Below are positions 12,828 to 61,692 of a stretch of DNA of 64,000 nt, piece after piece. The DNA is from Octopus vulgaris (lineage: Eukaryota). Position numbers and translations under genes: made by a program. The notes beneath the pieces are model-generated. The model ran no database searches. It worked only from the letters and a program-made list of their open reading frames with translations, and was not told where the DNA came from. The stretch covers positions 99,200,001 through 99,264,000 of the forward strand of contig OX597823.1 of NCBI GenBank assembly GCA_951406725.2, in the 5' to 3' direction. How positions within the stretch are numbered: the first letter of the stretch is position 1; every line of letters begins with the position of its first letter.

Positions 12828-13380
12828 TTACATGTCCTTGTAAATCAGGTATATTAGGTTCTCCAAAGCACATGTGAAGCTGCTTTTCACTGTGAAATAT
12901 TGCCTCTGTTTGAAGGAAAACTCTGTTCCCTCAATTAAATTAAAGCATATCCCACCGTTGGGTCTGCCGCATTTTTTTACTGACAGCTTCTGTGTTGGGA
13001 TATGTGTCAATTTAATTGAGGGATCAGAGTTCTCCTTCAAACAGGAACAACGTTTCATAGTGAAAAGCAGCTTCACATGTGCTTCGGAGAACCTGATATA
13101 CGCACTAACCTGCTCTGGGTGTCAAGAGCAATATATAGGCCAAACAAAAAACAGTCTACGTCAAAGGATGGCTCTGCACAGATCCCAAATCAAAATTCCC
13201 AGAAACAGAAAATTAGCATTCAGCCAACACATTGACATTTGCACCAATAACAAAAATCCAAGCTTCAGAATTTTTCCCCCTAAATCAATTCAGGGACGAT
13301 ACAACCTGTTGCCAACAAATTAGTCAAGAGATTCTCTTTATTACAAAATACAGACCCCTTTTGAACATATCTACAACAAA
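12828..13380 (+). mobile_element. Penelope-like element GIY-YIG endonuclease fragment with head-to-head inverted duplication
   Basis: FTCASENLIYALTCSGCQEQYIGQTKNSLRQRMALH is a PLE GIY-YIG signature with an upstream Cys-rich linker (KCGRPN.GIC); inverted arms 12849-12954 / 12996-13101. Confidence 0.85.
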
Positions 13381-53644: not shown

Positions 53645-53895
53645 GTGGCTTAGACCTAATTGTGATGCCTGGGCTTGCATTCTCCTTGGCTGGAGCTCGT
53701 CTTGGGCGAGGCAAAGGCTACTATGATGCCTACCTGAAAAAATGCTATGAATATGGTAACAAACCTATTACAATTGCTTTGTGTTTCCATCAAATGTTAT
53801 TTGATAACATCCCTGTTATACCAGGTTCCGATATGTTTGTCAACAAGGTTATTTACCCAGATGAAGCAGATCTCATGGAGAGCAGAACTAGATGA
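53645..53895 (+). CDS. MTHFS: MTHFS exon 3 of 3
   Basis: CCAG|[13 protein letters not shown]...[13 protein letters not shown], the ATP-binding signature of 5-FTHF cyclo-ligases; total CDS 618 nt = 205 aa. Confidence 0.95.
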
Positions 53896-54886: not shown

Positions 54887-55239
54887 TATATATGTGTGTG
54901 TTTGTATATATATGTGTGTGTGTGTGTATATATGTATATATATATATATATAGTTTTTGTATTTGGTTTGCAAGATTCTTTATGTGAATTTATGTGTTGG
55001 AGTATATTTTGTTGTGTCTGAGGAGAATCGTTCTGTATGCACATGCACACTGACACACACAGATGTGCACAAACAAACAAAAAGAACGCAGCTCTGATAA
55101 CTGACAGAGTCAAGGACTATTGGAGAGGTTGCAAGAAGCAACAAAAATTTTAGAAAAAATAAATAAGTAAATGAGTGGAAATCAAACTGGTGAGTGTGTT
55201 AATTAATAAGGCACTTAAAAACAGAATGACTCCCAAGAC

Positions 55240-55284
<45 letters not shown>

Positions 55285-55532
55285 TATGTATGTGTGCATC
55301 AGTATGTACTTGTATAGGATATATGCAGGCATACATACATACATACATGTGTGTGTATACATACATATACATATGTATATATATATAACTAAAAATAAGG
55401 GTGTCTGAGAGACACCACCATGCCGAAATAGCAGGCAAATCCCTGACTCTAAAAACCACCTTAAATGTTCATATCGCACCATGAGATAAGACAGATGGAC
55501 AAAATAGACTAGCAAAAAGATATTACTGAATA

Positions 55533-55591
55533 ATTCAAGATCCTGGATTTCTAGCTTTGCTTTAAATAAGCTTTGCCGTCATCAGTTGAAT
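55533..55591 (-). ncRNA. Type I hammerhead ribozyme motif (inverted copy)
   Basis: Exact reverse complement of 55971-56029. Confidence 0.68.
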
Positions 55592-55970
55592 ATATCAGAG
55601 CACATAAATACAAATATATATATGCAGAACAAACGTTATACTTACATATACGAACGTCCATACATACATATATATGCACGTATGTACACAGCCAGTTTAA
55701 ATTGCTTGCCAAACACCTCATAAGCACGATATGGTCAAAATAAACACCGCAGTGAATATAGTGACGAATTATATAAATTTATAAATAAGGATAATATCGA
55801 TATTATCAAGTGGCCAGCATGGGAAAAAATACCATACAAAGGTAATAATTTTTTATAACTAAAAATAAGGGTGTACATACGTGCATATATATGTATGTAT
55901 GGACGTTCATATATGTAAGTATAACGTTTGTTCTGTATATATATATATTTGTATTTATGTGCTCTGATAT

Positions 55971-56029
55971 ATTCAACTGATGACGGCAAAGCTTATTTAA
56001 AGCAAAGCTAGAAATCCAGGATCTTGAAT
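55971..56029 (+). ncRNA. Type I hammerhead ribozyme motif
   Basis: attcaa-CTGATGA-cggcaaagctt(attta)aagcaaagcta-GAAA-tccagg-ATC-ttgaat: 6-bp stem I, bulged stem II, near-palindromic stem III, AUC cleavage triplet. Confidence 0.7.
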
Positions 56030-57534
56030 TATTCAGTAATATCTTTTTGCTAGTCTATTTTGTCCATCTGTCTTATCTCATGGTGCGATATGAACATTTA
56101 AGGTGGTTTTTAGAGTCAGGGATTTGCCTGCTATTTCGGCATGATGGTGTCTCTCAGACACCCTTATTTTTAGTTGTAAAAAATTATTACCTTTGTATGG
56201 TATTTTTTCCCATGCTGGCCACTTGATAATATCGATATTTAAATATCGATATTATCCTTATTTATAAATATATATATGCATATATAACTGTATGTGTATA
56301 TAACTGAACCATACTAGTAATAGAATAGTATATATGGAATTTTTGTTGTTTTTATCTTTTTGAATTTATTCTAGGTTTTGTTTAATTTTCCTTTTTAAAT
56401 TTATTTGTTTTAATTTTTCACAATGAAAAAGAAAATCAAAACAACCAGCAGTTTAGCAGAACATTTTTTTTAATGGAGAATAATTTGGATAAATAAATTG
56501 TTTTTTTTTTTACTGCATGTATGATCAATTCATTGTTTAAAATATTGTATGTTTAATTATGTATATTGCATTAGTCTGTGTTTATGTAAGCATGCGTCAC
56601 TCCTGCTAATGGTTCTTTAACCCTGTGTAATGTGAGGATGTTAAAATGATGTGTTGTATCAAACCATTCTCGATGTCTCACAAAGTGATGTAATCAGCTG
56701 CATCAAGTGTAACTTTTGTTCTTTGTTTTTTTTTTCTTGCCATCATCATCAGGTGGGTCTGTGGTTTTAGCCTGATGGAGCAGAGCTATGATCAAAAGCT
56801 TACCTGCCATGCCCACCCTTTCTCTTTTTCTTCAGGTATTGTATATCTAATGATACGTTATAGGTGCAGATATAACTGTTGGCTTCTCAACCATGTGTGG
56901 GTTAGTTTCACTGTGCTACTAATTGGGCTAGTGTCTTTTACTATAACCCCAGGCTAACCAATGCTTTTTGAGTGGAGTTTTAAAGACAAATCTGTAAGCG
57001 GCTGAGATTTGCTGTTGAGCTTTCGTTTTAGTTCTCAAAAAATCTGCACCTGTTGAGGGATAACTCTGTCACTGAACAGGATGCTTGTCCCTTGTAGAAT
57101 TTGTCATCTGTAGAAATTAAAGTCACCACATGGTACAGTGGTTAGGGTGTAGGGTTCACAGTTGTTAGGTTGTGGGGTCAATTCTTGAACCTGGCTGTGC
57201 ATTGTGTTGTTGAGCAACACACTTCATTTCATGTTATGTCAAAATACTTAGCAGAAAATTAGTATCTGCAGGTTAAATCTGCTACAGAATGGTGTTCTGT
57301 TCAGAGGGCACAGGGGAGTAGTCTTGTATGTTATACCTAAATACCTTCTAAATCTGGACATGCTCCAGTGTCATGTACCTGTAGGTATGAGGGATGCAGA
57401 CTATATGCAAAAGTAGATGACAAGGGACCACAACAAGTTGCAAGCTACTTTTCTTTAGAAATTCTGTGTAACATATGCAAGCATGGGAAAACAGACATAA
57501 AATGAGGCTGCTGTTGCTGATGAGAATGATGGCA

Positions 57535-60420: not shown

Positions 60421-61326
60421 ATTCAGTCATCCTATAAATAATGCAGTTTTTCAGTTGTATGAACTAAAAGTCGAATGGGGGATGGGATAAACTACCTGCA
60501 TCAACTTGCTATAAAAGCAGGTAGTAATTTTACCTTCTACTTATTCTTTAGCACATGTTTTGAAAAATGCAGTTCGATTTTAACAGTTATTTTTTCAAAG
60601 CTATAATGGAAGTGACAAAAGCATATTTTTAAGGCAACAACGCAACGGAAAGTGCAAGAAATATTAATGCAGTATTTGGGGATTGGACAATAAGCAGTAT
60701 CAATGGTGGTTCTAGAAATTCTGAGCTGGAAACTACAGCCAAGAAGATGAGCCCTGGTGGGACAAAATCCCATCGTAACTGTTGAGGAACTAGCTGAGAA
60801 GCTTGGATTTGGTCATTCAACCATTCATCGATACCTGCAGCAAATTGGGTCAATGGGTTCTTTTGAACTTTTAAGCCCAAACCAAACAATAACGAAGGAG
60901 ATCTACCGTGAGTAGATTGAGTGGCCTAAGTCAGTGCTAAAAATGTGTTCTTTCATCAGGATAATGCTTGGTCACATACGGTAATGATGACATTTGAAAT
61001 GCTGAAGCAGTTTGAATGGGAAACAATGCCCCACCCACCATATTCAATGGGCATTGTCCCATCTGATTATCATTTATTCTGCAGCTTTTAGAATCATTTG
61101 GATGGAAAAAGTATGAATTCTGTTGGTCAGAACAGTACTGGAAGAGTATCTTTCATCATGGACAAGTGAATTTTGGAAGAGGGCCCTTGCAAGTCTACCA
61201 GATAGATGGAAGAGCATTGTAGAAAATGAAAGAGAGTATATTTCAGATTAAAAAAAAACTTTGCTTATCTTAATTTTGAAAAATAAAACAAGTATTAAAA
61301 AATGCATTATTTATTGGATGACCTAA
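60421..61326 (+). mobile_element. Internally deleted mariner transposon
   Basis: TIRs TATTCAGTCATCCTATAAATAATGC / GCATTATTTATTGGATGACCTAATA; HQDNA and PHPPYS...PSDYHLF motifs. Confidence 0.85.
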
Positions 61327-61547: not shown

Positions 61548-61692
61548 AAAAACAATTGCAGCGTGGAAGGTGTTTATAAGCCATTTAAGAAACACACAAA
61601 ACCGTTAGATTAAATTTAAATGTTGAAGTGAATCTAACAGTTTTGTGTGTTTCTTAAATGGCTTATAAACACCTTCCACACTGCAATTGTTT
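61548..61692. repeat. About 62-bp near-perfect inverted repeat with 20-bp spacer
   Basis: 61548-61610 versus 61631-61692, two mismatches, set between (TA)n tracts. Confidence 0.85.

Follow-up and report, generated by a model that had tools for sequence, protein, structure and literature searches.

Autonomous EN+ Penelope-like elements (PLEs) carry an open reading frame for a reverse transcriptase (RT) of the telomerase-like kind and a GIY-YIG endonuclease. Published accounts of their insertions describe, as common features, an inverted 5'-truncated copy, a tail on one side only and a bias towards (TA)n or microsatellite targets (PMC8557442; PMC3846280). According to the experiments described in PMC11167929, a purified PLE protein cleaves AT-rich DNA on both strands and extends them, reverse transcription starts at two internal sites whose spacing equals the tail, and the PLE hammerhead needs protein and is dispensable for insertion; the anole PLE is described there as showing no strand difference in its RT start site in vitro. 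Pairs of hammerheads on opposite strands, 100-700 bp apart, were reported in 2014 (PMC4209133). Animal non-LTR retrozymes, as described in PMC7229834, are short non-coding repeats of low GC with one type I hammerhead per unit.

We analyzed 64,000 nucleotides of Octopus vulgaris DNA (contig OX597823.1, 99,200,001 to 99,264,000; 'the window') and found that a two-armed insertion at 55387-56269 belongs to a dispersed repeat family, with a non-coding unit of 470 nt that bears a predicted hammerhead, and is one of its copies. The insertion shares with EN+ PLEs the head-to-head, 5'-truncated inverted copy, the partial tandems and the microhomology junction described for them (PMC3846280; PMC8557442; PMC11167929), as well as the one-sided tail, the AT-rich or (TA)n targets and a type I hammerhead that precedes the 3' end sites. 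Unlike EN+ PLEs, the family has no ORF and a unit of only 470 nt, no partner was recognized by sequence among 40 GIY-YIG loci, and its tail measures ~95 nt as against the 30-40 nt given for PLEs in these accounts. With retrozymes it has in common the non-coding nature, the low GC and the single type I hammerhead per unit (PMC7229834), together with the head-to-tail unit junctions and the co-occurrence with PLEs that are described for them. The 470-nt period, the motif and its covariation thus agree with a short non-coding retrozyme unit, whose length lies inside the 51-972 bp range stated in bioRxiv 10.64898/2026.07.22.740005 and slightly above the 150-450 bp stated in PMC7229834. Among the arms measured no long arrays were seen, the longest arm reaching 1.66 units, and because the window copy lacks two hammerheads on the same strand it falls outside the definition of 'active' worded in bioRxiv 10.64898/2026.07.22.740005. 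Judged by these features, the element appears to work like a PLE-mobilized non-autonomous element and to match retrozymes in unit, GC and motif. Its architecture is already published and is common in this genome; the departures from the known kind, a tail of ~95 nt and an extra A before G12, are both small. Our literature search found no cephalopod report.

Structure of the insertion

Self-comparison found two inverted matches, 55387-55689 with 55871-56175 (98% identity) and 55793-55874 with 56158-56239 (99%). A first-pass annotation of the window had read them as two separate inverted copies, a nested palindrome, of a unit of about 400 bp. The palindromic arms and the GTGT joint at the 5' ends of both arms held up (Table 1); the count of copies did not, as 55387-55874 is one continuous inverted arm. 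The supposed spacer at 55690-55792 belongs to the repeat unit and recurs as the link between units in other copies. In the reverse complement of the inverted arm the first 18 nt recur after 470 nt, which sets the period at 470 nt; the monomer has a GC content of 33%.

Table 1. Coordinates of the two-armed insertion, its parts and its surroundings in the window
Feature	Position	Strand	Description
Last coding exon, MTHFS-family gene	53647..53895	+	Stop 53893-53895; outside the element
Left flank, TA-rich target	55331..55386	.	Region also repeat-dense
Inverted arm	55387..55874	-	488 nt: complete 470-nt monomer in circular permutation, followed by 18 nt more; outer end is the element 3' end at site 2, without tail, facing left into TA-rich DNA
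Type I hammerhead motif	55533..55591	-	Identical 59 nt; cut predicted after C55539 on the minus strand
Link between successive monomer units	55690..55792	-	Recurs as unit link in other copies
GTGT microhomology	55871..55874	.	Common to the 5' ends of both arms
Direct arm	55871..56269	+	5'-truncated, ~400 nt; 3' end at site 1, boundary ambiguous to about 56276 (TA-rich DNA)
Type I hammerhead motif	55971..56029	+	59 nt; cut predicted after C56023; stem I of 6 bp, CUGAUGA, a C inserted after A9, two-part stem II, GAAA, palindromic stem III
Tail	56176..56269	+	~95 nt, site 2 to site 1; at one outer end only
Perfect palindrome	56225..56256	.	32 nt, within the tail
Right flank, TA-rich target	56270..56300	.

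The two arms thus show the head-to-head arrangement of a PLE insertion with an adjacent inverted, 5'-truncated copy, and the flanks, here and at other loci of the family, are AT-rich or (TA)n, so that a target duplication, if any, is hidden in (TA)n. Over the 305 columns of the long overlap (55387-55689 versus 55871-56175) we counted 3 substitutions and one 2-nt indel between the arms. This agrees with the first reading that only a few positions differ, and the near-identity supports a relatively young insertion; the short overlap departs from that reading in carrying 2 substitutions and a 14-nt indel, the 14 nt being part of the tail palindrome and absent from the corresponding part of the inverted arm.

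We found no match to PLE proteins at the element and no Pfam match in the 6 scanned frames of 45 or more codons that overlap it, low-complexity frames being excluded. The ORF that marks an autonomous EN+ PLE is accordingly missing, in line with the earlier statement that the locus has no coding capacity. A search of DNA contigs, dominated by other copies of the repeat, listed none that bridges the inversion junction. Contigs from three studies connect the last 24-29 bases of the element to the unique right flank, joins that fall below our 31-letter standard for bridging; they suggest, if only weakly, that the insertion is probably real and shared rather than private to one animal. Among the sequencing runs listed as containing the element, none is on record as RNA.

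The repeat family and its two end sites

With the plus arm as query the genome yielded 2934 first-look candidates, of which 40 were scored, at 93-100% identity. Exact hammerhead patterns matched 150 times in this family and 631 times in sister families, and reversed control patterns did not match at all, placing the family beyond chance. Among the first 100 of the 150 matches we counted 7 head-to-head pairs of hammerheads on opposite strands, and therefore regard this layout as routine rather than special to the insertion; the same 100 matches included no same-strand pair within 2 kb.

We then compared 54 distinct loci (60 fetched, 6 duplicates removed), a set that is not unbiased, since it holds the best hits to two queries of which the first included site 1. 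Head-to-head arms were present in 28 of the 54. Arms terminate at either of two fixed positions separated by ~95 nt: site 2, which corresponds to 56175, and site 1, at about 56269. The outer ends nearly always enter (TA)n-like DNA. Both ends could be called at 22 loci, 21 of which pair site 1 with site 2; the one seeming same-site locus, L037, was a false hit on an internal palindrome. All 21 valid two-ended loci hence carry the one-sided tail and the two fixed 3' ends of PLE insertions, the tail measuring ~95 nt. The single-ended loci end at site 1 (23) or at site 2 (7), and two showed neither site. The earlier proposal of PLE-type inverted 5' ends is supported by this pattern of ends and by the head-to-head arms.

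More than 470 nt were found in 36 of 85 arms, the longest spanning 782 nt (1.66 units); long tandem arrays were not seen among them. Two hammerhead motifs on the same strand occur at 4 of the 54 loci (L038, L042, L049 and L052). The 5' ends are scattered; 8 of 85 lie within a 19-nt stretch that contains a small natural palindrome. The distance between arms of the same locus lay below the between-locus median in 32 of the 34 inverted comparisons and in 31 of the 33 tandem ones; these comparisons are not independent of each other. For the window arms we counted 1 mismatch in 224 nt, compared with at least 1.4% to other loci. At two loci (L017 and L034) the subfamily variants near the hammerhead are not the same in both arms, and two different RNA templates could have contributed to one insertion there.

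Older relatives, ~79% identical to 56094-56261, form palindromes of ~250 bp without a hammerhead (L100:1329-1574 and L101-L130). Their centers cluster at a small natural palindrome and differ in sequence from copy to copy, which suggests a junction hot spot formed anew with each insertion. Amplification of such a palindrome as a fixed unit was rejected: junctions differ among 29 copies, no column separates left from right arms, and the copies had been selected by a palindromic query.

The hammerhead motif

Two identical hammerheads in opposite orientation had been noted in the first pass, with a perfect 6-bp stem I, a full core and an AUC cleavage site at 56023, and we found all of these in place. 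Stem I pairs AUUCAA with UUGAAU. The core positions C3-A9, G12-A15.1 and U16.1-H17 are intact in both window copies. Stem II of the plus-strand motif consists of 3 bp, a 3x3 internal loop and 4 bp. Stem III, AUCCAGGAU, is self-complementary as stated, with a computed self-duplex energy of -7.6 kcal/mol. In being type I, with a small palindromic stem III suited to dimers, the motif resembles the metazoan PLE hammerheads characterized in PMC4209133, and it likewise shares the optional extra nucleotide between A9 and 10.1 and the occurrence in opposite-strand pairs, 100-700 bp apart. Dimeric cleavage had been proposed for the locus. The dimer-type hammerhead is borne out; dimerization in cis is impossible, because the two motifs lie on opposite strands and each strand holds one sense hammerhead.

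Directly before G12 stands an extra A (56010). Among 98 copies matched with at most 4 substitutions this base is A in 96, and the core reads CUGAYGA in 84, GAAA in 93 and UC in 89. Genome-wide, the pattern with A before G12 matched 781 times and the pattern without it once. The 10.1-11.1 pair thus does not adjoin G12 directly, as A intervenes. The family differs from the hammerheads described in PMC4209133 in this constant A between 11.1 and G12, in a stem II split by the 3x3 internal loop, and in the 10.1-11.1 pair, which is G-U in the window copy and G-C or A-U in relatives.

We parsed 112 copies, requiring an intact core and choosing sister-family loci for a C before the A. In this set, one pair of stem I is A-U in 51, C-G in 46 and U-A in 10 copies, one pair of stem IIb is A-U in 59 and U-A in 52, and the first pair of stem II is G-C in 62, G-U in 38 and A-U in 10; position 7 is U or C. 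Stems I and II thus show compensatory change across three or more related subfamilies, where the events are few and inherited, yet located at the pairs where they would be expected. Of the 112 copies, 57 have no base after A9, 32 have A there and 21 have C. The C-A pair that had been proposed to close stem II is rejected on this alignment: as the 5' base varies and the A before G12 is family-wide, the two are better read as unpaired bases flanking a G-U pair.

An Rfam scan gave no hammerhead match at E values up to 10, only low-complexity miRNA noise, and the stability of the 60-mer on its own is unremarkable (z -0.11), so that the case for a ribozyme is one of motif and covariation. The genomic copies show no sign of cleavage, as their 5' ends do not pile up at the predicted cut (1 of 85 arms within 5 nt). 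A U4-to-C core change is common to one sub-lineage (L010, L019, L024, L038, L045, L049 and L057; 9 of 98 copies), which suggests that copies with a presumably weakened ribozyme still spread.

The literature that we searched contains no description of an extra A before G12, which may already be known or shown in figures or supplements. The text of section 8 of PMC3088659 names only the insertions A6a and U13a, and the search filter given in that paper would have discarded hammerheads with A before G12. We tentatively put forward that the motif may be a working hammerhead variant, in which an extra A is conserved between C/U11.1 and the general base G12 through subfamilies with compensating stems, a reading that we hold to be possible rather than probable. 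Neither Rfam nor descriptors that require the 10.1-11.1 pair to be adjacent would detect such a variant. Together with the 95-nt tail and the rule of one site per arm, it would offer a compact substrate for testing how a PLE dimer primes the two ends of a single DNA break at two separate RNA sites. The extra A is in any case a candidate core-adjacent insertion, possibly undescribed, and standard searches would discard such hammerheads.

PLEs in the same genome

Many young elements with RT (RVT_1) and GIY-YIG domains and a Cys motif before the endonuclease are present in this genome; they are Neptune-like by the description in PMC8557442. We searched for an autonomous partner with a homologous end among 40 GIY-YIG loci (30 loci and 10 wider stretches) and found none: apart from two separate neighboring insertions, the loci did not match the monomer beyond AT-rich ends. 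The sample is small, as at least 148 matches to PF01541 were listed of 6136 candidates. Coding PLEs at two loci are themselves two-armed and end in (TA)n, with inverted arms of 766 nt (L097, 100% identity) and 1595 nt (L161, 98%). The latter lies beside a copy of a sister family and was considered as a partner; it proved to be an independent insertion into the TA tract that also holds that copy.

Within the 1595-nt inverted arms, in the 3' region of the Neptune-like PLE, a minimal type I hammerhead is recognizable by eye (L161:7593-7634); it shows the U3-A8 variant of the core, its stem I spans 6 bp and its stem III is palindromic. A young RT and GIY-YIG family (L091-L094 and L100) has many intact 781-aa frames preceded by a separate 330-480-aa frame, and ends in (TA)n; its last dozen bases resemble site 1 of the 470-nt element.

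Proposed mode of integration

The best explanation, which we consider very probable, is that of a non-autonomous element mobilized in trans by a PLE reverse transcriptase-endonuclease. It rests on the 470-nt period, the head-to-head arms, the two fixed sites in TA-rich DNA, the use of one site per arm, the 4-nt junction microhomology and the near-identity of the arms. A GIY-YIG endonuclease would cut both strands of a (TA)n tract. Reverse transcription would then be primed by both DNA ends, from site 1 for one of them and from site 2 for the other, these being internal start sites ~95 nt apart. The template would be an RNA of one donor longer than the unit, whether present as a tandem transcript, as two RNAs or as a circle; a length beyond one unit is indicated by the arms that exceed 470 nt, and a single donor per insertion by the closeness of arms within loci. 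Both cDNAs would stop early and their 3' ends would be joined, here through GTGT. In the active lineage the hammerhead has presumably been maintained by selection, and its activity, as a dimer or aided by protein, is probably weak. The window copy itself is probably a dead end, since each strand has a single sense hammerhead, which any read-through RNA would bury in a duplex of 300 bp. The in vitro result described for the anole PLE does not by itself explain the rule of one site per arm, and the family offers a natural dataset on this unsolved step of PLE integration, in which each arm uses a different start site and one donor serves both.

It is unlikely that the 470-nt unit, rather than being an independent short element, is a pseudo-LTR that belongs to some full-length PLE yet to be found, with the copies as its truncated stumps. 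PLE pseudo-LTRs are indeed described as a hammerhead followed by two 3' end sites (PMC11167929), and animal retrozymes reportedly derive from them (bioRxiv 10.64898/2026.07.22.740005). Against this, the sequence beyond site 1 continues into the next monomer, 36 of 85 arms are longer than one unit, and no common non-monomer sequence adjoins the 5' ends; PLE protein matches were found at only two of the 60 fetched loci (L004 and L045), both more than 500 nt from the element. An inversion that came about once the element was in place, through fold-back replication or recombination at the locus, or else an assembly chimera would account for arms that are 98% identical in a TA-rich, repeat-dense region whose junction is bridged by no listed contig. 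The inverted arm, however, holds the link at 55690-55792, which is absent from the direct arm, and so cannot be a copy of it; moreover, 5 substitutions and two indels set the arms apart, and the outer end of the inverted arm sits on site 2, as in 20 other loci. The extra sequence and the end at the family's site make a chimera improbable, and we give late inversion and chimera together very little credence.

A regulatory effect on the neighboring MTHFS gene, in which the sense hammerhead would cut the 3' UTR or read-through RNA, is a quite different proposal. The MTHFS exons (PF01812) lie on the plus strand, 1.5 kb of DNA separate the stop from the insertion, and the plus-strand hammerhead, which has the same sense as the gene, lies 2.1 kb beyond the stop, as had been pointed out; the insertion is, besides, probably not private to one animal, given the right-flank joins from three studies. 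Two AATAAA signals (54271 and 55158), however, stand between the stop and the insertion, upstream of the hammerhead, and the hammerhead has no dimer partner in cis. Metazoan PLE hammerheads of this kind are described as cleaving poorly (PMC4209133), and 8 of 9 retrozyme dimers in the tests reported in bioRxiv 10.64898/2026.07.22.740005 failed to cleave. When 55300-56400 was folded as one RNA, the plus-strand hammerhead paired with the inverted arm at a mean probability of 0.999 and stem I had a probability of 0.0; even in the plus arm folded alone stem I forms only about 10% of the time. In read-through RNA the antisense arm would be made first and is predicted to sequester the sense hammerhead in a 300-bp duplex, so that a hairpin rather than a cut is expected. 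Of the two fates suggested earlier for such RNA, long dsRNA is therefore plausible and cleavage is not. The most likely host consequence would be a 300-bp hairpin in any read-through RNA, and we regard cleavage of MTHFS RNA as highly improbable.

Other features of the window

Directly left of the insertion, 54960-55240 is another very high-copy repeat with a contig depth comparable to that of the element. A GIY-YIG fragment of a PLE is present in both orientations at 12843-13278 and is probably another inverted PLE stump. Weak matches to Mos1-type and other HTH domains at 60633-60912 probably mark a remnant of a mariner transposase. A near-perfect hairpin of ~140 nt at 61552-61691, with a sub-threshold match to a miRNA family, is probably a small inverted-repeat element.
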